64,000 nt of DNA from a virus. How positions within the stretch are numbered: position 1 is the stretch's first letter; each line of letters begins with the position of its first letter. Below are positions 1 to 40,717 of the stretch, one piece after another. Below the pieces are notes generated by a model. That model saw only the letters and a list, made by a program, of their open reading frames with translations, had not been told where the DNA came from and did not search any database. The stretch is taken from IMG/VR virus record IMGVR_UViG_3300025127_000017, positions 1 through 64,000 of that record. The stretch is one strand, 5' to 3'. The position numbers and the translations under genes were made by a program.

Positions 1-2
1 CC

Positions 3-95
3 ATTCTTATGAATGAAGAATGGAAGGCTAGAAATAGAGATAAAATTAATGCGAGAAAAAGAAAACAACATCAAGAGAAAAAAAATAAAGAGTGA
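3..95 (+). CDS. 3' end of an ORF cut by the window edge (basic tail ...ARKRKQHQEKKNKE)
   Basis: The frame is open from position 3 to the TGA at 93-95. It is on the same strand as the downstream replication genes and closely spaced with them. Confidence 0.3.
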   Translation: MLMNEEWKARNRDKINARKRKQHQEKKNKE

Positions 96-100
96 TAAAT

Positions 101-1012
101 ATGTTATGGACAGAAAAATACAGACCATCTAAACTAAGTGATATTGTAGGACAAGAACACTTTGTTATGGATGCAGAAACATGGATTGAAGAAAAGAATA
201 TACCTAATTTGTTATTCTACGGTAGAGCAGGAACAGGTAAAACTGGGGCTGCTTTAGCATTAGCAAAGACAATACTAGGTAATAATACATCTGATAACTT
301 CTTTGAAGTTAATGCATCAGATGATAGAAAACTAGAAACAGTTAGAACACTAATTAAGCAAATAGCACAAAGCGGAACTATTGGTGATGTGCCATTTAGA
401 ATTTGTTTATTAGATGAAATGGATGGAATGACAAACGATGCTCAAAATGCATTGAAGAGAATCATGGAGCGATATGCTTCTAATATTCGATTTATTATTA
501 CTTGTAATGATAGAAACAGAATTATCTTTCCTCTTCAAAGCCGATGTGCAAACTATCATTTCAAACCTCTTTCTAATGAGGTCATTTTAGAAGTAATCAA
601 GGGAATCTTAACCAACGAAAACATTAATCGTTTTTCGGATGAGGACTTGTTACCCTTTATATATTCAATGAATGGTGATATTCGTAGAGCGATTACCGAG
701 ATTCAAGCGGCAAAATCGTCAAATATCACACTCAAAAAACAAAGTGAGATGAATTTAGAAGAATATGTTAAAATAATTAATTTGATAATGAATAAAGATA
801 CAAATGTCTTAGCAACCCTTCACGATATGATTTACATGGGTAGGTCTGTTCGTGAGATTTGCATGGGTATGCATGATAGTATTATTCAATCAGAAGGAAT
901 AGACTCAAATGTTAAATTTAAGTTTTTAAGAACAATAGGAGAAAGCGAATACCGTTCCACAACCATGACACCAAGAGTATTGATTTCATGGCTTGTAGGT
1001 CAGTTAATCTGA
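101..1012 (+). CDS. Replication factor C small-subunit-like clamp loader ATPase (archaeo-eukaryotic type)
   Basis: The RFC boxes are present: WTEKYRP, GRAGTGKTG (Walker A), LLDEMD (Walker B), AQNALKRIME and SRC. The ATG at 101 follows an AGTGAT SD. The track start at 92 is the GTG inside that SD. Confidence 0.85.
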   Translation: MLWTEKYRPSKLSDIVGQEHFVMDAETWIEEKNIPNLLFYGRAGTGKTGAALALAKTILGNNTSDNFFEVNASDDRKLETVRTLIKQIAQSGTIGDVPFRICLLDEMDGMTNDAQNALKRIMERYASNIRFIITCNDRNRIIFPLQSRCANYHFKPLSNEVILEVIKGILTNENINRFSDEDLLPFIYSMNGDIRRAITEIQAAKSSNITLKKQSEMNLEEYVKIINLIMNKDTNVLATLHDMIYMGRSVREICMGMHDSIIQSEGIDSNVKFKFLRTIGESEYRSTTMTPRVLISWLVGQLI

Positions 1013-1038
1013 AACAAAAAAATAAGGAAGTGAAAAAT

Positions 1039-2259
1039 ATGAACGACGAAACGAAAAAAGAAATAGAAAAAGGCGCACAAATTGTTGGAATGTCTGTTGA
1101 AGAAGCAACAGATAAATTCAATTCTATTTGTGCTGAGAATAACGTGGAAACAACAGCAGATTTGGCTAAAGCACTTTGGCGAAACTTTGTTGCACAATTC
1201 CGACGACAACAGAAAGTAAATACCTCTAATGGTGGAAATACGGGTGGAAGTCTTGTAAAGGCTGCATTTGGTTTCTTTGTTGCTTTAGAAGCACCAAGAG
1301 ATATGATGAGTTGGAATAGAAACCGAGCAAAAGAAGAATATCTTCGTGATGCTGATAAAGCACTTGAAGATGGTCATATTGCAGTAGCGACTCAGAATGC
1401 TTTAGGTAAGTGGGTTATTTCACGTTACCACAAGAATGAATATCAAGAGAAGATTGTTTCAAATCTTCCCGAAGGTGCAGAAGAATTAGAAAACGGAACA
1501 ACAGTTATTCCGCTTGATAATCAACCAACATATATGTCTGGTGCAGAAAACCGTAATTATGGAAAGCCTCTTCCATTAGAACAGTTTAGACGAACAGGTG
1601 TTTTCTTTGGTTCTGTTGATGGTGGAGAAATGAAAACTTATACTTTTTCGTATAAGAATCAACCTGCCGTTGATTTTGCACCAAACTGTTTTGAATGGAT
1701 TCATTTTGCTTGTATTCCAAGCGATGATGGTTCAGCCATTTATGGTATGACCAAAACAACATTGAACAGTTTGGTTAATCATTCAGACGTAAATCCTGAA
1801 AGTGAGAACTATCAAGATGTTTCATCTTTCGACTTTGAACAATGTTTGGTTGATAACTTTTCAAGCCATCTTGTTCCTTTGGTTGAAATTGATAGAGCGC
1901 ACATTCAGCGACAAACATTACCTGCAAAGGAAAGATTTGTAGTTACAGATGGAACTGTTTGTAATATGAATATGACTCCTACTGCAAATGGTAATCGAAT
2001 TATCAATCTAACTGATATGACTGTTGAGTTTGATTATGATAATGATTCCAACATGACTACTTGTTGGATTCCAAGTCATTTAACAATTGACTTTGGAGTA
2101 GGTTCTTCTGTAATTGTTATCGGAAGAACTTCACAAAGAATGGTGGATGGAGAAGCCGACCCAGTAACAATCAATGTTTCTGGATTATATGTTGTCCAAA
2201 GAACGGGTTCACCCGTTGAAGTAGAAGAAATCGTCGAAGAGAACTTCGATTGGTTCTGA
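1039..2259 (+). CDS. Hypothetical replication-module protein (possible ssDNA-binding role, by position only)
   Basis: A long ORF sits directly after the RFC-like gene. The ATG at 1039 is preceded by AAGGAAGTGA. I recognised no catalytic motif. Confidence 0.6.
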   Translation: MNDETKKEIEKGAQIVGMSVEEATDKFNSICAENNVETTADLAKALWRNFVAQFRRQQKVNTSNGGNTGGSLVKAAFGFFVALEAPRDMMSWNRNRAKEEYLRDADKALEDGHIAVATQNALGKWVISRYHKNEYQEKIVSNLPEGAEELENGTTVIPLDNQPTYMSGAENRNYGKPLPLEQFRRTGVFFGSVDGGEMKTYTFSYKNQPAVDFAPNCFEWIHFACIPSDDGSAIYGMTKTTLNSLVNHSDVNPESENYQDVSSFDFEQCLVDNFSSHLVPLVEIDRAHIQRQTLPAKERFVVTDGTVCNMNMTPTANGNRIINLTDMTVEFDYDNDSNMTTCWIPSHLTIDFGVGSSVIVIGRTSQRMVDGEADPVTINVSGLYVVQRTGSPVEVEEIVEENFDWF

Positions 2260-2349
2260 TATATTCCTCGTTGGGGCAAATAGTGTAAGTATGAACTAAG
2301 AGGAATTTGATGCTCAAATGGGTGCAAAGCCCTATACGGAGATTTAATT

Positions 2350-2619
2350 ATGACGACGGATTTAAAAGAAGAAAGGTTTCTTTTGAAAGGAGATGCCTAC
2401 ATTGTAGATTTAGCCAATGTAGATTTCTTAACATGGAGAAAGAACGAAAAAGAAAACGGAACTTATTGGTTGAAAATGCATTTTTCAACTAAAGAAGCAA
2501 GATATATTTGCGATAAATTAGAATTAGCAACTATCTTAATGGCATGGACTAAAATGCATGGTAAAGAATTAGATATAGATATAAATGAATTAGGTGATAG
2601 TTATGGGAATAACAGATAA
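2350..2619 (+). CDS. Hypothetical protein (89 aa)
   Basis: The ORF lies in the operon orientation. I preferred it to the overlapping 2307-2492 ORF, which has an odd Cys/Arg/Phe-rich composition. Confidence 0.5.
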   Translation: MTTDLKEERFLLKGDAYIVDLANVDFLTWRKNEKENGTYWLKMHFSTKEARYICDKLELATILMAWTKMHGKELDIDINELGDSYGNNR

Positions 2620-3412
2620 GAAAGGAGAACAAAAGACGACTAACTTTGGAAAGCAGCAAGAAGATTTCAATTCTCGCTTTAGACAATTGATGGAAGAAAA
2701 AAGAAAAGAACGTAAAAGTCGAATGGTCTTAGGAATTTGGGGAGAACCAAAAACAGGTAAAACTGGTATTGCTCTCGATTTTCCAGAACGTAAGATTTAT
2801 GTTTTAGATTGGGATAGTGGTGTTGAATCTACATGGATTGAATGTCATGATGCAACAGAACGTATTGAAGTATTTGACCCAATTGTTCAGGACAATGAGA
2901 ACAAAATTGATATTAATGCATCTGAGAAAAACTCTCATGATTTTATTCGATATGTTCGACAGAAGATTGAAGAAGGTGAAAAGCCTATCTTTGTGATAGA
3001 TGGAGTAGATACATGGTTTGAAAAATGTATTTACAAAGTTAATCCAAACCCAACAGTTGTAACAAAGATGATGCCATATCAGTATGGCCCACGAAACAAA
3101 ACTTTCTATTATTTGCTTGAAGCAATTTTTAATCTAAAGTGTGATGTAATTTATATTACTCACGAAACTGAAAAATATGTAGATAATGTTGCTACGGGTA
3201 TTCAACCTGCATGGAAGGATTGGGGCGGAAAACTAGAACAAGAGATTCATTGCTCTAAGAGAAAGGTAAAGGGTGAAATACACTTTGTTGCTGAATTGAT
3301 TGGTTCAAGAACCAATGGTAATAAAGTTGGAACACGTTGGACTATTCGAGAAGGTATTCCACCTAATATCGTTTGGAACGGTATTCCTGATTTGCGGGAG
3401 GGTAAGATTTGA
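2603..3412 (+). CDS. P-loop NTPase of the RecA superfamily (AAA_24/Sak4-like recombination ATPase candidate)
   Basis: Walker A is GEPKTGKTG and a Walker B-like IFVIDGVD is present. The ATG at 2603 follows GGTGAT. The track start at 2594 is the GTG inside the SD. Confidence 0.6.
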   Translation: MGITDKKGEQKTTNFGKQQEDFNSRFRQLMEEKRKERKSRMVLGIWGEPKTGKTGIALDFPERKIYVLDWDSGVESTWIECHDATERIEVFDPIVQDNENKIDINASEKNSHDFIRYVRQKIEEGEKPIFVIDGVDTWFEKCIYKVNPNPTVVTKMMPYQYGPRNKTFYYLLEAIFNLKCDVIYITHETEKYVDNVATGIQPAWKDWGGKLEQEIHCSKRKVKGEIHFVAELIGSRTNGNKVGTRWTIREGIPPNIVWNGIPDLREGKI

Positions 3413-4176
3413 AATTTGCTGTGAATACAAAAGAAATAACAGAAGCATTAGAAAGTATTCAAGGTAAAGGTAAATACTTAACTTCATCAGGTTTTACGAA
3501 CAACTCTATGGGATTATATTTCTTAATGCAGTTAAAAGGTAATGCTCTTTCCATTTGGAATGGAGATACTACCTTTGCTATGAATATTAATTTAGAAGTG
3601 ATAGGTGCAGAAGATGGCGAGTTTATTGGTAATGTTAAGACTCTTGTTCCGTATCTTAAAAAATACGGAGAACTAACTGCTTTTGTTGTAGATGATACGA
3701 TTCAGGTTAGTTCTGGAACAAAGAAGGCTAGTGTCTCAAAAGTTATCCAACATCCTAACATGACTGCAATTACAAGGCTTCAAGGTATGTTATCTGATAT
3801 TACCTATGAAGAAGCAATCACAAATTTACCAGATTTTGGTAAATCAAAATATGAAGGTGCGTTTGTGCTAAGTCAAGATGTTTATGCTGATTGTATTTCA
3901 TCTTGTGAATTAGCAAATCATGGAGCATTTAAACTAGATTACAATGGTAATACCGTTACATTTTCAAGCGGTGCAACTATTCAGAATCAATACGAAGAAA
4001 GAATTACACCAACAAGTTGTTTTGGTGAATCTGCAACATTAGAATATAGTGGCCCATTACATAAGTTCTTTAAGAAGAACACTAATATTAATTTTTATGT
4101 AAAGGATGAGTTTCCTCTATTGTTAGTTGCAGAAGACAGGATGATAATTAAAGCACCGTTTTCGGCAGGTAATTAA
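3409..4176 (+). CDS. Putative sliding clamp (PCNA/gp45-sized protein)
   Basis: The protein is 255 aa and lies immediately upstream of polB in a genome that also encodes an RFC-like loader. It uses a TTG start after a GGGAGGG SD. I recognised no diagnostic motif, so the call rests on size and context. Confidence 0.4.
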   Translation: MKFAVNTKEITEALESIQGKGKYLTSSGFTNNSMGLYFLMQLKGNALSIWNGDTTFAMNINLEVIGAEDGEFIGNVKTLVPYLKKYGELTAFVVDDTIQVSSGTKKASVSKVIQHPNMTAITRLQGMLSDITYEEAITNLPDFGKSKYEGAFVLSQDVYADCISSCELANHGAFKLDYNGNTVTFSSGATIQNQYEERITPTSCFGESATLEYSGPLHKFFKKNTNINFYVKDEFPLLLVAEDRMIIKAPFSAGN

Positions 4177-4177
4177 A

Positions 4178-5839
4178 ATGATAATAAGTAAAACAGTAAC
4201 AGGAAAGCACATTTATACATCATGGAGAGAAGGTAGAGAGAAAAGACAAACAGTTGTCGAATTTACTCCTTATTTTTATATCCTATCTTCTGATAATCAA
4301 CCTAAGTATTACAATCCTTCTAAATTTGTAAAAAGAGAATTTACTTACGAAGAAGGTAATTGGCACAATCTTCAAGGTGAAAAATTAACTAGAGTTTATG
4401 TGGATAAGTCTGATGACATTCATATTGCTCGACGTTCTTTTGTAAAAACCTTTGAAGCAGATGTCCCATATGCATTTAGATATGCAGTTGATTCTTTGGG
4501 TTCTTTACCTGAATATAAAATGCGTAAATGGTATTGGGATATGGAATGGCAACAGGGTGGTGAACATCATGATAAGATTACTACTATTGTGGTTTATGAT
4601 AATTATGATGAGAAATACTTTCAATGGGTTTGGTTTCCTAATTACGATGATTCCTTAGAAGGAAAAGATATGAAAGACTTTGATAAGTTTGTTTTCAATA
4701 ATGAAAAAGATATGATTGAAAACTTTATGCAAACAATGGCTGATAAAGACCCTGATATGTTAATTGCATGGTTTGGTTTAAAATTCGATTTGCCAAAACT
4801 CCTTGAGCGAGCGTGTGCTTTGGAATTGAACCCTACTATCATATCTCCAATTTTGTCAATCAAGGGCGTTAAGAAGACTAAGAACGGCTTTGTTTTCAAT
4901 TATGGCAAGAACGGATTCGGGCCGATTGAACAACCCATTGGGGGTCGCATAACCCTCAATTTAGACCTTGCTTTTGAAAGGCAATGGAATGACTCTCAAA
5001 GGGGAACATTACCATCAATGTCTTTAGATTATATTTCTGAATCAGTATTAGGAAGAAAGAAACTTGTTAGTGAGAAGTTTCCAGACCCAAACGTATTCTA
5101 TCGAGAAGGTTGGTTGAATGACACTGAAACATATCTTAAGTATGCTCAGATAGATGTTGAATTGATGGTTGAGATTGATGAACTAAACTATTGTAGTGAA
5201 GCAATCGTAGCATTACAAAGACTTCTAATTGCACCATTTAGTGCTTGTTTTTACGCAAGTCATATGGGTTCAATCTATTTTATGCGTAATGCTACATGGA
5301 TTGCACCAACTGGTGAAAAGGTAGAAAAGCGTCAAGAATATGATGGTGCTATGATTTATGACCCATTAAGTGAAGAAACAAATGGACTACATCTTAATGT
5401 TGCTGCCTTTGACTTTGCTGGTCTTTATCCCAGTATGATGATTGCAAGAAACATTTCATGGGAAACTAAATCAGAAGAACCAACACAATTTGGTGTAAAT
5501 ATTTTAACACCGAGAGATTTCAGTATTACTGATAGAGAACAAATGCTCTATTATAAGACAGATAATCTCGGCCTTTTACCGAGAGCAGTTCTTGAATTAA
5601 AAGAATTAAGAAATGAATACAAGCGTCTTATGAAGGAAGCAAGAGAAAATGATGATAAAAATGAGTATGTCAAGTGGTATAACAATCAAATGGCAGTTAA
5701 AAGATTAATGGCGTCATTTTACGGAATTGTTGCCTTTCAAGGATTTGGATGGGCTGATGTAGATTTAGCCGCTTCTATTACTGCAAGTGCAAGAGAAGCA
5801 ATTCGTTTAGCCGCATTCAAAGCAAAGGAGATGGAATAA
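4178..5839 (+). CDS. polB: Family-B DNA polymerase, N-terminal fragment (exonuclease domain plus polymerase motifs A and B)
   Basis: Exo I is WDMEW, Exo II is FGLKFDLP and Exo III is YAQIDVEL. Motif A is DFAGLYPSMM and motif B is KRLMASFYG. The ORF stops 5 residues before the expected position of motif C. Confidence 0.9.
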   Translation: MIISKTVTGKHIYTSWREGREKRQTVVEFTPYFYILSSDNQPKYYNPSKFVKREFTYEEGNWHNLQGEKLTRVYVDKSDDIHIARRSFVKTFEADVPYAFRYAVDSLGSLPEYKMRKWYWDMEWQQGGEHHDKITTIVVYDNYDEKYFQWVWFPNYDDSLEGKDMKDFDKFVFNNEKDMIENFMQTMADKDPDMLIAWFGLKFDLPKLLERACALELNPTIISPILSIKGVKKTKNGFVFNYGKNGFGPIEQPIGGRITLNLDLAFERQWNDSQRGTLPSMSLDYISESVLGRKKLVSEKFPDPNVFYREGWLNDTETYLKYAQIDVELMVEIDELNYCSEAIVALQRLLIAPFSACFYASHMGSIYFMRNATWIAPTGEKVEKRQEYDGAMIYDPLSEETNGLHLNVAAFDFAGLYPSMMIARNISWETKSEEPTQFGVNILTPRDFSITDREQMLYYKTDNLGLLPRAVLELKELRNEYKRLMKEARENDDKNEYVKWYNNQMAVKRLMASFYGIVAFQGFGWADVDLAASITASAREAIRLAAFKAKEME

Positions 5840-6463
5840 ATGGGGAAAAGGTCAATGCCAATCAAAAAAACAATATATAATTATTGGGAAAAAAGCCCAC
5901 TAAAATCAGTTTTAAACAAACAAGCATTTGACGGAAATAACAATAGATGTATGGCTTGTGGTGCAGAAGCAAGTATAGACCGAGCGCATATTGTTTCTCG
6001 ATTTTACGGAGGTTCAAACAATCCATCAAATATTCATTGTTTATGTCAAATTTGTCATAAGTTAAGTGAAAATTTAGAAGGACATGATTATTGGTTATGG
6101 GTTGCCTTAAAATCAAAATTGTTTTCTTATGGAACAGATATGACATATGAAATGGATTACAAATCATCAAAAGATAAAACTCTTATTCCGTATTATACGG
6201 AATTTGAATATCCTACTAAACTAAAGAAGTATTATAGAGAATATACACAACTATCTTTGCTTGAAGGGTGGATAGGAAGAAGTGCTTTATGTTACCTATA
6301 TCTAGCAAGATGCTTGCCTAATGAATTGGATATAAGTTATCCTAACTTATCAGATATAGAAGAAGTTTTAGAATATAATTCAGAATTACATGATTATATT
6401 ACTGCTATTAAAAAAGCAGAAGAGGTGATAAAATGGGAAAAAGTGCAGGAAATTACAGAATAA
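5840..6463 (+). CDS. HNH homing-type endonuclease
   Basis: The HNH signature is CMACG...DRAHIVSRFYGGSNNPSNIHCLCQICH. Confidence 0.85.
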   Translation: MGKRSMPIKKTIYNYWEKSPLKSVLNKQAFDGNNNRCMACGAEASIDRAHIVSRFYGGSNNPSNIHCLCQICHKLSENLEGHDYWLWVALKSKLFSYGTDMTYEMDYKSSKDKTLIPYYTEFEYPTKLKKYYREYTQLSLLEGWIGRSALCYLYLARCLPNELDISYPNLSDIEEVLEYNSELHDYITAIKKAEEVIKWEKVQEITE

Positions 6464-6690
6464 AAAAGAAACTACCTGAAGCCTTAAAGCAAGTAAATCC
6501 TGATAAATTTCAGTTAGAAGAGATACTTGCTTTTTATGAGAAAGAGCATGGAACATATTATAAGATAAATCGAATAGCATCTCTTTTGAAGCCATATGCA
6601 TTCGCAGTTGGAAACAGGTCTAGGGCTTATTATTGGACAGTAAGAGAGAAATGGAGGTATTTATATGAAGAAGAAAATAGTGACAGTTGA
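6433..6690 (+). CDS. Hypothetical protein (85 aa) within the polB insertion
   Basis: The ATG is preceded by a GAGGTGATAAA SD. The ORF overlaps the 3' end of the HNH gene. Confidence 0.5.
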   Translation: MGKSAGNYRIKKKLPEALKQVNPDKFQLEEILAFYEKEHGTYYKINRIASLLKPYAFAVGNRSRAYYWTVREKWRYLYEEENSDS

Positions 6691-6829
6691 AGTATCTTAT
6701 GATACAGAAGAGACATGGGATATTACTTTACAAGAAGTAAAGGAATTATTTCAAATGATGAATAACATTAAAAGAAACGCTATTATAGTAAAGGTAAGTG
6801 ATGAGAATGATGATGGACAAAACCAATGA
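6665..6829 (+). CDS. Hypothetical small protein (54 aa, MKKKIVTVEVSYDTEE...)
   Basis: I translated this ORF by hand because it is below the track cutoff. A GGAGGT SD lies 7 nt upstream of the ATG. Confidence 0.35.
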   Translation: MKKKIVTVEVSYDTEETWDITLQEVKELFQMMNNIKRNAIIVKVSDENDDGQNQ

Positions 6830-6938
6830 ACTTCTCGAAGAACTTCTTGCTATGATAGCAAAAAGCAATAAGATATTGATGATGGTAAATATCGTAAATA
6901 TAATAACCATTATAACAATCGTAACGGTGATATTATGA
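6801..6938 (+). CDS. Hypothetical small membrane peptide (45 aa, hydrophobic C-terminus NIITIITIVTVIL)
   Basis: I translated this ORF by hand. Its TGA overlaps the ATG of the next ORF (ATGA coupling). Confidence 0.25.
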   Translation: MRMMMDKTNELLEELLAMIAKSNKILMMVNIVNIITIITIVTVIL

Positions 6939-7129
6939 GTAAAGAAATTAAAGAATTAAAAGCAGAAATAGAAAATTTGAAGCAAACAGTAAAGAGGCTT
7001 GAAAATGAAATAAGCCAACTTTACGAAGAGAATGTAACATTCGCAGACTTAGTTAAAGATATTAAAACTATCAAGCAGGAATTGATGCAATATACTGATG
7101 GTAAGATTTACTTTGATAATGCATGGTGA
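6935..7129 (+). CDS. Hypothetical coiled-coil protein (64 aa)
   Basis: The sequence is heptad-like (KELKAEIENLKQTVKRLENEISQL). Its stop overlaps the GGTGAT SD of the polB C-terminal fragment. Confidence 0.5.
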   Translation: MSKEIKELKAEIENLKQTVKRLENEISQLYEENVTFADLVKDIKTIKQELMQYTDGKIYFDNAW

Positions 7130-7133
7130 TACT

Positions 7134-8021
7134 ATGAAAGTAGTTTATGGACATACGGATTCAATCTATGTTCAGATTGAATCTATTGAAAAGGCTGAAT
7201 CAACAATCAAAGAGATTGAAGAATCGGTTCGTGAACACTTTCCTAATGTTTTAAATCTTGAACAACATCCTGTTGTCCTTGAATTTGAAAAGTATTATTC
7301 TGCATTAGGTGTTGGAACAACAAAGAATCGGAATGCAGGTTTAGTATCATGGGAAGATGGAGTTTGGCTTGATGAGCCTAAATTTACAATGACAGGTTTT
7401 ACTGCAAAGCGTGTTAGTGAAACAAAACTTGCTAAGGATGTTCAAACAACAGTATTGAAGATGTGGGTCGGACAAAAGACAATGGGAGAAATAAACAAGT
7501 ATCTTTCTGACAAATACGACGAAGTTATGGAAGGCAAAGTAAATACTTCTGATATTGTAAAACGTAGTCGTCTAAGAGAAGATAGAGTTATTCTTAAGTG
7601 TCCAGAATGTAAGAAGAAACACCACTTAAAAGAATGTATTAAAATTAAATGGTGTGATAAATGCGGAACAGAAACAGAACAGTTCGTAACATCTACTTAC
7701 AAAAGACCTGCAATCGGTTCGGGTATTGCAGGTATTCTTTATGCTTGGGAAAGATTAAATATGACCTTCGATGACTCATATCTATATCTCAAGGTTAAGA
7801 ACATACATGACACATATACTCATCCTTTGACGAAAGAAAAAAGAGAAGTAGAATATGTATCTGCAACAACGTATGATGATTTTAATAATTATACTCCAGA
7901 CTACAAGCATTATGCAGAACAAATAGTAAAGAAGGCTGAACCAATTTATCGAGCGATGGATTGGGATGTATCTTCGATAAGAACAGGAAAAATACAAATG
8001 AAATTAGACGAATGGTGGTAA
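7134..8021 (+). CDS. polB: Family-B DNA polymerase, C-terminal fragment (motif C plus thumb with a Cys4 finger)
   Basis: The fragment begins MKVVYGHTDSIYV, which is motif C (YGDTDS). A CPECKKK...CDKCG zinc finger follows. The ATG at 7134 lies after GGTGAT, and the track start at 7098 adds a non-polymerase extension. Confidence 0.9.
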   Translation: MKVVYGHTDSIYVQIESIEKAESTIKEIEESVREHFPNVLNLEQHPVVLEFEKYYSALGVGTTKNRNAGLVSWEDGVWLDEPKFTMTGFTAKRVSETKLAKDVQTTVLKMWVGQKTMGEINKYLSDKYDEVMEGKVNTSDIVKRSRLREDRVILKCPECKKKHHLKECIKIKWCDKCGTETEQFVTSTYKRPAIGSGIAGILYAWERLNMTFDDSYLYLKVKNIHDTYTHPLTKEKREVEYVSATTYDDFNNYTPDYKHYAEQIVKKAEPIYRAMDWDVSSIRTGKIQMKLDEWW

Positions 8022-8022
8022 A

Positions 8023-8928
8023 ATGAACAGCGACGAAAGATATAATGCGGTGATTTCTTCGATGAGAGAATACACTTATCAATGGAATCACGAAAATTAT
8101 GATGACCCTTCTATGCCTATCTTGAAAATAACTAAGTCTTCTTTGGGAACTTTTGATTGGTGTCCAAAGAAATATGACTTTTCTTATGTTCAACGTTTGC
8201 CTCAAGACCAAACCGAAGCGATGCTTAAAGGAACAGTTCTTCACAATCATAGAGAGAAGTTCTTTGAAGACTTTGATATTAAGAAGGCTGAGAAAATGAA
8301 CAATAGTGAAATCCTAGAATATTGCACAGGATTAATGCCTGTTGATGAATACTATGATATTTCATTGACTGTTGCTTCTCTTGAAGCACAAAGATTTATT
8401 GAAGCAAAGGCAGAAGATAAAGTCCATGAATATTTACCTGTTTGTAATGAAGGAAAGTTTGATGCAGAAATTACAATCCCTGCAAACATTAATCCTAAGT
8501 TTCCTTTGCAAAGAGATTATGTAATTCATATTCAAGGAATCATTGACCGCATATTCAAAGAGAATGGTGGTCTTATTCCTTTTGAATATAAAACAGGTGC
8601 ATGGAAAGACTACAAGAAAACTTCAATGAGGAAGGAAATGGCATTTTATGAGTTACTTATCGAAAATGCAACGGATGAAGTCATGATTAAGAATGGCCTT
8701 GACCCTAATGACAAAGTATCTCATTGGGGTTGGTATTATCCAGCATCAAATTATATTTATGCAGAAGAAAGAAAGAAGAGGTCTATGACTTCTGTAATGA
8801 ATAATATTGCTAAGTTAATACACCACTATGAAAGGCAACAATTTCCTGCTAAGTTCTTTTACAAGACTTGCGCTCATTGTTCTTACTTTGGTATTTGTGA
8901 TGCGGCACAGGATGATTCATGGGTGTGA
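8023..8928 (+). CDS. Cas4/RecB-family PD-(D/E)XK nuclease with a 4-Cys cluster
   Basis: There is an N-terminal Cys (WCPKKY), the nuclease motifs IIDRI...FEYKTG, and a C-terminal CAHCSYFGIC (CxxCx5C). Confidence 0.8.
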   Translation: MNSDERYNAVISSMREYTYQWNHENYDDPSMPILKITKSSLGTFDWCPKKYDFSYVQRLPQDQTEAMLKGTVLHNHREKFFEDFDIKKAEKMNNSEILEYCTGLMPVDEYYDISLTVASLEAQRFIEAKAEDKVHEYLPVCNEGKFDAEITIPANINPKFPLQRDYVIHIQGIIDRIFKENGGLIPFEYKTGAWKDYKKTSMRKEMAFYELLIENATDEVMIKNGLDPNDKVSHWGWYYPASNYIYAEERKKRSMTSVMNNIAKLIHHYERQQFPAKFFYKTCAHCSYFGICDAAQDDSWV

Positions 8929-38215: not shown

Positions 38216-40717
38216 TTACTCTTGTGGTATGGTTAATTCGTTAAACCTATCCTCATAGATGTTCCAGATTCCCTCATCGTTTTCCTTATCAGCAGGTGTT
38301 TGCTTAAATCCAGTCCATGCAAGCCACATTTTTTTATCTTTCACAGGTAATACTCTAATGTGTAATTTTGTCTCGAACTTGTTTCCTTCTAGGAAATATT
38401 CGTGATAACCATGTCTTTGTAGTCCTAATTCAATTTTACCAGAATCAATTATCTTATCTTTAGAAACATTCTTTGAAACTTCCGCAGGATATTTACCTGC
38501 CTTTCCAAATAAATCGAAGATATTATCTTCTTCATTAAGTTCAATATACCAATGCATTGTTTCTCCACCAACGGATATTGTAAAGTTTAAATTATCATCT
38601 TCTCTTAAGTAAATCTTAAAATTACCTTCACGGTATTTTTCTGGAGTTTTATATGCTTTTAACATTGTTGGTTCTTTAATAACTTTATCATCCTCAGAAA
38701 ATAACTTTTTAGTTTTCATATCAAAAGCAATACCGTCTCTATTTTCAAACCAATCCTTGACTCTATTTAATTTACTTTCCAATATGTCTTCATAAGTAGA
38801 TTTATGATTTTTGACTAAGAAGTTGTGTATTTCTTTTGGAGTTTTAGAACCGTTTTCTTTTAAATGATTAAATACTATTTGAGTTAACTGTGATTGTTTT
38901 GTTTTCATAATTTCTTCTGCTTGTGCCTTCCACATATCAATATCAATCAATGCGTTTTTTGACATAAGGTTACTTTCTTCAAAACCATAAATAGTAAAAC
39001 CATCTAAATCAGATTTAATAATTACATTAGTTTCTCCGTGAATATGGTCTGTAACAATCATTCCTTTTTCTAACGCCTTAACATCATAATTTAAGGATTT
39101 CTTAGTATCTTGTGAAAGCATTTCCAATGTAACGATTTTATCAGGATATTCAACTTCGGGAACTTCGATAACCTTTGCAGAAAACAAAGTGTATCTATCT
39201 CCATTCTTTTTAACTTCATCAACCTTAACTCGAACAATATCCCCGACATCTACATCTATTTTAGTATTCAATGCTTTCCCAACATCCATGTATGTAGTTC
39301 CTTCAATTTTAGAATAAAACTTCCCTTCTCCTTCGGTTGGCCCTGCTCCCAATGTATATGAATTTAAATTTGATTTTGTTGTTTTCTTGTCAAGGACGAT
39401 TAAATCTAAATCAACAAACTTCTTCCACTTAATCCATTTTGGATTCTTTCTTGTGCCTATGTAGTATGTTGAAGTCATGTCTTTGATAACCACACCTTCG
39501 GATGTAGGCATATCCATAATCTCCTTTGAATACTCTTCTACATCCTTCAAGTTATCAGCAGTTCTTGTATCTTTCTTTGATGGAAATGCTATTGCTTCTG
39601 TCGAATGCATTGAATAGTTGTTAAATAATGTATTAATTCTATTATCAAGTTCTTCTTCTATTAATTCCTGTTCATTATGTCGCATAATATCAAAAACGTG
39701 CGCTTTTAACTTAGCATCTGGATATTTGTTTTTAAATACATAAGCAATAGTATCAGCACGATGTAATGCTTCATCTCCATCAAACAGAATTAACTCAGCA
39801 TCAAGAATACAATCTCCATACTTTTTCTTTTTGAGTTCTTCGACTTGTTCCTTACACTTTTCAGATATATCCTTTTCATTATATGAAAAGACCCTAACAT
39901 TGTTATCTATCTTATGAATCTGTATTCTCATACCATCATACTTTTCTTGAACAAGGTAGTTTCCTGAGAAGCCCTTTAATTCATTCATGTCATCAATATC
40001 AAAGATTCTATACATTGGTTTGTTCGGAGTAATAAAATCGCTTTTAGATTTTTGCTCAGACTTTTCAATACCATCAATTTCCTTCAAGTCCTTTAAATCT
40101 TCTTTTGAGTATTTGGAGAAAAATAACGTTTCTAATATCTCTAAGGCAGCCTTAACTTTGCTTTCTACCTTTTTTGAGTCTTTATCGTCGCCATACTGTT
40201 CGATAATATACAAGGGAATGTCCTCTTCATCTAGGTCAAGTCCTTCCAACCCATCAGTTATCGTGTCGGCTTCCATGTCTTTAATGCTCCAAACTTCTTT
40301 TGGAAGTGCTTTATCGTCATTTCTTAAAGCATAGTGAACAAATTTAACCATTGTTTCTGGAGAAGAGAGTAATCCTTCAAGAACATTCCCTTTGTATTTT
40401 CTTGCGAATGGGTCTGAAATTAAATCAGAACTGAATCGCATTTCTTTAATACCATTGTAAATCTTTTCAGCGATACTACTTGTAGGGTCTTTTGCTTCTT
40501 TGTTTTCTAATTCGTTTTCTTGAACAAACTTTTTCATTTCTTTGCTAAGTTCGTTCAGTTGCTCATAGATTTCTCTAATGTCATCAATTGCTTTACGCCA
40601 CCTATTCCCATATTCTTTGGGGTCGGTGCGAGCAGATAGATAAGCGACTCTTGTTTTCTCAAAAAGACGTATAATCTCTTCAGAAGAATCTTTATCCTTT
40701 TCAATGAGAAGAGGCAT
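38216..40717 (-). CDS. ATP-dependent DNA ligase with large N- and C-terminal extensions (833 aa)
   Basis: Motif I is EKYDGMR, motif III is ILDAELILF, motif IIIa is HVFDIM, motif IV is EGVVIKD and motif V is KWIKWKK. Confidence 0.85.
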   Translation of the reverse strand: MPLLIEKDKDSSEEIIRLFEKTRVAYLSARTDPKEYGNRWRKAIDDIREIYEQLNELSKEMKKFVQENELENKEAKDPTSSIAEKIYNGIKEMRFSSDLISDPFARKYKGNVLEGLLSSPETMVKFVHYALRNDDKALPKEVWSIKDMEADTITDGLEGLDLDEEDIPLYIIEQYGDDKDSKKVESKVKAALEILETLFFSKYSKEDLKDLKEIDGIEKSEQKSKSDFITPNKPMYRIFDIDDMNELKGFSGNYLVQEKYDGMRIQIHKIDNNVRVFSYNEKDISEKCKEQVEELKKKKYGDCILDAELILFDGDEALHRADTIAYVFKNKYPDAKLKAHVFDIMRHNEQELIEEELDNRINTLFNNYSMHSTEAIAFPSKKDTRTADNLKDVEEYSKEIMDMPTSEGVVIKDMTSTYYIGTRKNPKWIKWKKFVDLDLIVLDKKTTKSNLNSYTLGAGPTEGEGKFYSKIEGTTYMDVGKALNTKIDVDVGDIVRVKVDEVKKNGDRYTLFSAKVIEVPEVEYPDKIVTLEMLSQDTKKSLNYDVKALEKGMIVTDHIHGETNVIIKSDLDGFTIYGFEESNLMSKNALIDIDMWKAQAEEIMKTKQSQLTQIVFNHLKENGSKTPKEIHNFLVKNHKSTYEDILESKLNRVKDWFENRDGIAFDMKTKKLFSEDDKVIKEPTMLKAYKTPEKYREGNFKIYLREDDNLNFTISVGGETMHWYIELNEEDNIFDLFGKAGKYPAEVSKNVSKDKIIDSGKIELGLQRHGYHEYFLEGNKFETKLHIRVLPVKDKKMWLAWTGFKQTPADKENDEGIWNIYEDRFNELTIPQE

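Follow-up and report, generated by a model that had tools for sequence, protein, structure and literature searches.

In this work, we describe a viral family B DNA polymerase (PolB) that is encoded in two pieces, together with the genes that lie between them. The window, that is, the whole stretch of DNA analyzed, comprises 64,000 nt (positions 1–64,000 of the IMG/VR record IMGVR_UViG_3300025127_000017), and the locus studied occupies positions 4178–8021. All open reading frames (ORFs) of this locus are on the + strand and tightly packed, with a Shine–Dalgarno (SD)-like element 5–9 nt upstream of each gene. A scan of IMG/VR returned 524 related stretches; 62 fetched loci hold both polymerase halves, and they present 56 distinct sequences of the gap between the halves, the window's included. 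The genes and signals of the locus, with the occurrence of the small genes among the 56 distinct gaps, are the following.

Positions 4178–5839, + strand: polB-N, 553 aa, ending in ...AAFKAKEME followed by TAA; recognized by Pfam, PHROG and motif conservation.
Positions 5840–6463, + strand: HNH endonuclease gene, free-standing, 207 aa; its ATG abuts the TAA of polB-N.
Positions 6433–6690, + strand: o85 (family c4), 85 aa, in 19 of 56 gaps.
Positions 6665–6829, + strand: o54 (family c0), 54 aa, in 55 of 56 gaps.
Positions 6798–6938, + strand: o46 (family c1), 46 aa, in 56 of 56 gaps.
Positions 6935–7129, + strand: o64 (family c2), 64 aa, in 55 of 56 gaps.
Positions 7125–7130, + strand: SD of polB-C, GGTGAT.
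Positions 7134–8021, + strand: polB-C, 295 aa, starting MKVVYGHTDS; motif C, remaining palm and thumb.

This layout agrees with an original prediction made from the letters of the window, which had the first polymerase ORF ending at 5839, the second starting at 7134, the HNH start codon directly after the TAA and an SD for each small ORF. Based on our data, the locus very probably encodes an anciently split, two-subunit polymerase whose split site has been colonized by free-standing homing endonucleases.

PolB-N contains the N-terminal domain, the 3'–5' exonuclease, motif A of the palm and motif B of the fingers. It matches Pfam DNA_pol_B over model positions 25–193 of 453, phrog_262 over positions 16–560 and Pfam DNA_pol_B_exo1 at 1.3e-8, while PolB-C matches the first two of these families further along, at positions 222–365 and 574–726, respectively. 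The sequence motifs are located as follows.

Positions 4538–4549, + strand: Exo I, DMEW, in polB-N.
Positions 4784–4795, + strand: Exo II, FDLP, in polB-N.
Positions 5141–5155, + strand: Exo III, YAQID, in polB-N.
Positions 5411–5434, + strand: motif A, DFAGLYPS, palm, in polB-N.
Positions 5699–5725, + strand: motif B, KRLMASFYG, fingers, in polB-N.
Positions 7143–7163, + strand: motif C, VYGHTDS, palm, in polB-C.

The three exonuclease motifs that characterize family B, Exo I (DxE), Exo II (FDxP-type) and Exo III (YxxxD), are all present in PolB-N and conserved in 56 relatives, and the polymerase motifs A (DxxSLYPS), B (KxxxNSxYG) and C (YGDTDS) are found across both halves. Motif C retains its second, catalytic Asp, and has His in place of the first Asp (HTD, not DTD) in all 56 distinct relatives. 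The start of polB-C, ATGAAAGTAGTT, is near-invariant among these relatives, and nearly all distinct gaps end with a G-rich SD-like element 5–8 nt 5' of its ATG. We also considered the in-frame ATG at 7098, from which the frame is open, and rejected it as the start of polB-C, as it lacks both an SD and conservation.

Two other features of the polymerase genes deserve mention. Between Exo I and Exo II, polB-N has an indel-rich hypervariable patch (4578–4720; …NYDDSLEGKDMKDFDK…), which shows only 51–73% identity and is gapped even against 93%-identical relatives. In the thumb region of PolB-C there is an insertion (7599–7664) with an apparent CxxC-x14-CxxC zinc ribbon (CPEC…CDKC), for which the match to Pfam Zn_ribbon_8 is weak.

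When the two halves are joined in silico (KAKEME|MKVVYGHTDS), they align without gaps over the junction with YAKRLGIEVIYGDTDS of PDB 5mdn and with VQKMNLEVIYGDTDS of Pol alpha. Judging from this alignment to solved PolBs, the break falls in the short turn that leads from a palm helix into the beta-strand bearing motif C, with no residue lost or added; the claim of the original prediction that nothing is missing at the junction is therefore correct.

The split was found at the identical residue in all 62 loci with both halves, with gaps ranging from 474 to 1955 nt. An uninterrupted polB, which the original prediction had proposed to look for among related contigs, did not turn up among these 62 loci, none of which has contiguous halves; the presence of the HNH gene is variable. 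Moreover, the 120 best polB-N homologues (70–93% identity) all measure 539–561 aa, and even L093, a deep lineage with a PolB identity of just 53%, shares the position of the break. These comparisons indicate that the split is old, fixed at one inter-residue position and shared by the clade, rather than peculiar to the genome of the window. Differences at the three codon positions amount to 0.22/0.16/0.41 in polB-N and 0.24/0.16/0.48 in polB-C, and the relatives show little or no variation in Exo I–III and in motifs A, B and C, a pattern that indicates purifying selection on both halves. In the L093 locus (L093 1741–5192), polB-N carries a Cys-rich insertion, CDDCGYENPKDKQLKECKKCG.

The replacement of the first Asp of motif C by His might be taken as a sign that the split polB is a decaying pseudogene in a virus that relies on another polymerase, a possibility that the original prediction had tied to the loss of catalytic residues. 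We regard decay as extremely improbable. Both halves are conserved across hundreds of contigs with coding-type substitutions and invariant catalytic motifs, the second Asp of motif C is kept, and no second polymerase was found among the ORFs of at least 100 aa screened against Pfam. His occupies the same position in a distant relative with an unsplit PolB, L095 (AGHTDS, at about L095 1480–1500). Since HTD occurs in all split relatives and also in this unsplit one, it is a lineage trait, neither a mark of decay nor tied to the split. In addition, other PolBs without the first Asp of motif C can be active (PMC7544198).

The original prediction left two ways of obtaining a whole enzyme, assembly from two polypeptides or RNA splicing. 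The former fits our results, and the latter does not. If the 1294-nt insert were an intron (group I, group II or of the archaeal bulge–helix–bulge type) and splicing restored a single polB ORF, the junction would be expected to be exact to the residue, as it is, and group I introns often carry HNH genes. In Aeromonas phage 25, the polymerase gene 43 contains an intron (PMC2993671). However, Rfam matches at E≤10 in positions 5500–7500 did not go beyond chance level (MALAT1, snoRNAs), and no Rfam family reached its gathering threshold in five relatives. Bulge–helix–bulge-like motifs at both junctions of 56 loci numbered 43, against 70.8 expected from shuffles, and a custom scan revealed no motif position shared among these loci. 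The smallest gaps (474 nt in L041 and 562 nt in L076) hold o54, o46 and o64 and nothing more; filled as they are by three conserved protein genes, they leave no room for an intron core. Gap content differs among relatives by whole genes, and the stop of polB-N and the SD and ATG of polB-C are conserved, which also speaks against an intron. Splicing is, in our opinion, highly improbable.

Ligation of the two halves after translation by a split intein, as in the so-called fractured genes or in the PolB of Nanoarchaeum, has a close parallel in marine phage metagenomes, where fractured genes with a free-standing endonuclease between the halves have been described (PMC2677866). Nevertheless, the ends of the fragments align contiguously to intact PolBs and leave zero residues for intein halves, no Hint or intein Pfam match was found, and the residues after the junction (M-K-V) include no Cys, Ser or Thr. 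An intein located within the insert would be interrupted by stops, which occur there in all frames. The probability of an intein is close to nil, and the original prediction was right in seeing none.

Clustering of the ORFs found in the gaps reveals that the intervening 1294 nt consist of two layers, older small genes (~700 nt) and a 593-nt HNH cassette. The four small ORFs of the first layer are no chance occurrences: they are genes, conserved and with substitutions of the coding type. Upstream of o54, o46 and o64 there is a small gene that varies with the lineage, of the o85 type in 19 loci and of an unrelated 70-aa type (family c3) in 33 loci. The o54 product is a conserved small acidic protein (…VSYDTEETW…MMNNLKRNAII…), modeled by AlphaFold (39-sequence alignment, pLDDT 76.7) as a single helix, residues 15–35, with extended segments on either side. 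We considered whether its VSYDTEETW segment could have arisen as a duplicate of the motif C hairpin (…VYGHTDS…) and persisted as a relic, an idea rejected after an hhalign comparison of the o54 family with the polB-C family (probability 0.2%, E 0.32).

The o46 product is a peptide of ~43 aa (MMMDKTNELLEELLAMIAKSNKILMMVNIVNIATIITIVTVIL) that combines an amphipathic helix with a hydrophobic tail; its translation probably starts at an ATG within 6801–6813. Its gene overlaps the stop of o54, in another frame, and the start of o64. The mean pairwise amino-acid difference is 0.154 for o46, compared with 0.245 and 0.304 for the PolB halves and 0.655 for o64, a fast-evolving small coiled-coil protein; the codon-position pattern of o46 is coding-like (0.153/0.082/0.265). 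Neither o54 nor o46 has a Pfam or PHROG match, and all 226 of 226 homologues of o54 and o46 come from this virus clade. Two database proteins, P0157 (90 aa) and P0195 (74 aa), are natural o54–o46 fusions, which suggests that the two work together.

It is conceivable that o54 and o46, the latter a helix-plus-membrane-anchor peptide, are obligate partners of the two-piece polymerase instead of passengers, acting for example as an assembly clamp or as a membrane tether of the replisome, and o64 may belong with them. If so, the magrovirus replicase (see below for the group) would have three or more components. The deep lineage L093 has none of the three genes, which argues against an obligate role in the polymerase, and we find such a role rather doubtful. 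The uncharacterized o54 and o46 mini-proteins may be worth a targeted experiment. In L093, the gap is occupied by an HNH homologue and a Cys-rich ORF of 44 aa alone.

The second layer is the HNH cassette. The inserted segment spans positions 5840–6432 (593 nt), and the last 31 nt of the HNH gene overlap o85. In the four closest relatives (L001, L006, L007 and L011; 93–94% identity in PolB-N and 96–97% in PolB-C), o85, o54, o46 and o64 are kept and the HNH gene is absent; their gap measures 701 nt against 1294 nt in the window, a difference of exactly 593 nt. The empty site is clean in these relatives and the junctions align. Imperfect direct repeats flank the insert of the window, and the empty site (L001, L023) has one copy of them.

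Positions 5822–5850, + strand: left repeat, GCAAAGGAGATGGAATAAATGGGGAAAAG, comprising the polB-N tail, SD, ATG and first codons.
Positions 6416–6443, + strand: right repeat, GCAGAAGAGGTGATAAAATGGGAAAAAG, giving the SD, ATG and first codons of o85.

The presence of an HNH endonuclease in the insert, as originally predicted, is supported by matches to PHROG HNH families at 1e-7, while the Pfam scores stay just below the gathering cut-offs (26.1 vs 27.5 for HNH_5 and 21.0 vs 21.4 for HNH). Residues C37, C40, H50, N64, C69, C72 and H73 (CxxC...H...N...CxxCH) are invariant in a 19-member alignment of the family that includes the copy of the window, which indicates that the catalytic and zinc-binding residues are intact.

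The nearest relatives without the HNH gene are split at the same residue and, because of this, we interpret the HNH gene as a recent, optional, mobile gain in an already split gene, not as the cause of the split. The original prediction had a 1.3-kb HNH cassette splitting the gene; this has to be revised, as the HNH segment makes up only 593 nt.

A somewhat different history would have an ancestor of this HNH family invading an intact polB and supplying the stop and start, with the present copies descending from it. The family is small, with only 20 clusters in a database of 5.8 billion proteins, and its members immediately follow polB-N in all split-PolB genomes examined for their context, including the deepest lineage, L093, where the gap consists of the HNH gene and one 44-aa ORF alone. 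In many members the C terminus repeats the polB-N tail (…KEME or …KEMKV), and the model of Dassa et al. proposes exactly such a route (PMC2677866). On the other hand, the majority of split genomes have no HNH gene, the copy of the window is clearly a recent gain and the family also occurs beside an unsplit PolB: in L095 the PolB upstream of a member is unsplit and 28% identical. Moreover, an endonuclease may simply have invaded a gene that was already split, as discussed for phages 25 and 44RR (PMC2988022). We consider an HNH origin of the split possible, although unlikely.

Whatever its history, the HNH protein resembles its relatives more than the polymerases do: identity to the window is 96% for HNH versus 80% for PolB in L019, 66% versus 53% in L093 and 55% versus 28% in L095, which points to horizontal spread of the HNH gene. 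The L095 stretch (1–5107) has a higher GC content and holds the unsplit PolB, five small ORFs and then the HNH gene, just before a PD-(D/E)XK nuclease gene; the ORF preceding HNH ends in …EMEMKE, similar to the polB-N tail.

The HNH family is not the only occupant of this position. In 10 of 56 distinct gaps, the slot directly after the polB-N stop holds an extra nuclease gene: HNH in the window, in L019 and, as a 49%-identical version, in L028; T5orf172/MUG113 (GIY-YIG-like) in five loci; and endonuclease-VII-like in two. Genes of the latter two kinds occupy the slot at the following places.

L013, positions 7666–8265: T5orf172/MUG113 or endonuclease-VII-like gene.
L064, positions 8007–8630: the same.
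L022, positions 6728–7390: the same.
L072, positions 7884–8327: the same.

We therefore regard the split site as an insertion hot spot for free-standing nucleases, a view drawn from the comparison of these gaps. Several of the other inserted nucleases also end in a copy of the C-terminal peptide of PolB-N (…AKEMKE, …AKEMEV). With several of the inserted genes ending in such a copy, the cassette duplicates the signal that its downstream neighbor needs. In fact, the final codons of polB-N, AAGGAGATGGAATAA, also provide the SD of the next gene (AAGGAG upstream of the stop).

The neighborhood of the split site is mosaic. Compared with the L017–L023 subclade, the nucleotide identity of the window is 62–78% over the first kb of polB-N, jumps to 92–98% from ~5175 through the end of polB-N (5839), is high again over o54–o46 and the first 250 nt of polB-C, and drops after ~7370. 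Such a pattern implies that the region of the active site and split has been exchanged repeatedly between diverged lineages, by recombination centered on the split. It is also what homing with co-conversion would produce and is consistent with it, without amounting to proof for this HNH gene. We considered the possibility that the 92–98% tract is specific to HNH carriers and discarded it, as relatives of the same subclade without HNH or with other nucleases share it.

Taken together, the data fit a quite probable model in which PolB-N and PolB-C are translated independently and associate non-covalently into a two-subunit polymerase. The active site would be composite, with the Asp of motif A coming from one chain and that of motif C from the other. 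Functional precedents are the split polymerases of Aeromonas phage 25 and Methanobacterium, which are compared below. The space between the halves amounts to a small gene island, formed by the o54–o46–o64 module, a lineage-variable gene (o85 in this case) and the hot spot after the polB-N stop. There, the HNH gene borrows the terminal SD of polB-N for its own translation, and the degenerate copy of the SD and start at its 3' end would keep the downstream gene expressed. The HNH gene might spread by cutting HNH-less alleles during co-infection, being then copied in by recombinational repair, with flanking polB sequence dragged along.

Some points weigh against this reading or limit it. Motif C is HTD and not DTD throughout the clade. 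The anatomy of the locus, its conservation, the presence/absence polymorphism and the mosaicism are read directly from the sequences. The association of PolB-N and PolB-C, and polymerization by the pair, are things that we infer indirectly, and cleavage and homing by the HNH protein are deduced from its distribution and from the mosaicism. Relatives have the 92–98% tract in common whichever nuclease gene they carry, if any, and it therefore documents recombination around the site but not that this HNH gene caused it. Finally, the placement of the virus discussed below depends on gene content, split architecture and the existence of ~94-kb marine contigs.

The split polymerase is part of a larger replication region. 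Its neighbors include an RFC-like clamp loader, an AAA_24 ATPase and a PD-(D/E)XK/Cas4-like nuclease; a 255-aa ORF with no Pfam match occupies the position of the clamp gene, and an ERCC4 nuclease was called in syntenic relatives. On the opposite strand there is a caudoviral structural block with terminase, portal, prohead protease, HK97-type capsid protein and tail tube. Within this block, as in magroviruses, an 832-aa protein (38216–40717, − strand) has an ATP-dependent DNA ligase domain (residues 246–431). Close relatives are marine contigs (Tara and others) of ~94 kb, and no cultured relative was found among 50,697 deposited genomes of phages and archaeal viruses; the closest of these belong to tailed viruses of haloarchaea (~25% polB-N identity), and a tblastn search of the collection with polB-C gave no match.

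A split PolB was noted in the original prediction for some magrovirus-like contigs, and correctly so according to the sections of Philosof et al. (2017) that deal with it: the DNA polymerase gene of seven group B magroviruses is split within the catalytic domain, a condition stated there to be unique among archaeal viruses (PMC5434244). The current name of group B is Aoguangviridae (PMC11706807). In the window, too, a PolB split in two adjacent genes is found together with a tailed-virus genome and an archaeal-type replication block, a gene content that fits a tailed virus of marine archaea belonging to the magrovirus group B type.

Two-piece PolBs have been known in magroviruses since 2017, and the present case opens no new category. 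What is added is that the split is universal and positionally fixed over a very large and abundant clade of ocean archaeal viruses, that the split site receives free-standing nucleases from at least three unrelated families and that the active-site region of the polymerase at the split is recombinationally mosaic between lineages. The locus may be seen as an archaeal-virus counterpart of the T4-phage paradigm, in which intron-less homing targets essential genes of replication, and as a natural system for studying how a two-chain polymerase active site assembles.

The closest known system is that of the group B (B1) magroviruses themselves. Like the virus of the window, they are described in the passages on that group as tailed marine archaeal viruses with genomes of ~90–100 kb, with a block of clamp loader, clamp, PolB, nuclease and primase and with a PolB whose catalytic domain is divided between two neighboring genes on the same strand (PMC5434244). 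The split of the window and the published one are almost certainly the same feature. The passages of that paper on the split, reported in seven metagenome-assembled genomes, do not describe what lies between the halves (PMC5434244); our analysis adds the small genes conserved as a module, the hot spot for nucleases and the optional HNH gene.

Among cellular organisms, Methanobacterium thermoautotrophicum also has an archaeal-type PolB in two genes with a split in the catalytic domain (Kelman et al. 1999, as cited in PMC4104785 and bioRxiv 10.1101/101196), whose halves, according to the account in the latter, are expressed and interact (bioRxiv 10.1101/101196). In that case, however, the passages concerned attribute the split to faulty excision of an intein and mention no endonuclease between the halves (PMC4104785; bioRxiv 10.1101/101196). 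The position of the split is similar but not identical to that of magroviruses, according to the relevant statement of Philosof et al. (PMC5434244).

The fractured genes of Dassa et al. (2009; PMC2677866) share with the window the order half, endonuclease, half on one strand of marine viral DNA, as well as an endonuclease cassette that supplies or overlaps the translation signals of its neighbors (PMC2677866). They differ in their defining split-intein halves (PMC2677866), which are absent from the window. In phage Aeh1, a free-standing HNH gene, mobE, also lies between the halves of an essential enzyme, NrdA, which reassemble into active enzyme (PMC2988022; PMC3045599). There the enzyme is a ribonucleotide reductase and the HNH insertion itself made the split, in one phage (PMC2988022; PMC3045599), whereas the split of the window is clade-wide and mostly without HNH.

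In Aeromonas phages 25 and 44RR, the family B replicase is likewise encoded by two cistrons, gp43A and gp43B, with a free-standing homing endonuclease in some relatives only, and the review that summarizes them leaves it ambiguous, in the part on this system, whether the endonuclease caused the split or invaded later (PMC2988022). The gp43A and gp43B proteins of phage 25 co-purify and are active (Petrov, Ratnayaka & Karam 2010, as summarized in PMC2988022). These are, however, T4-like phages of bacteria, their endonuclease is of the GIY-YIG (seg) type and, in the account given there, the intercistronic sequence is untranslated (PMC2988022), in contrast to the conserved small genes of the window. 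The position of the break also appears to differ; PHROG families 2062 and 1918, which break ~55 residues earlier, before motif B, look like such half-polymerases. The window is in this sense comparable to gp43A/B with seg in phage 25 and to nrdA with mobE in Aeh1.

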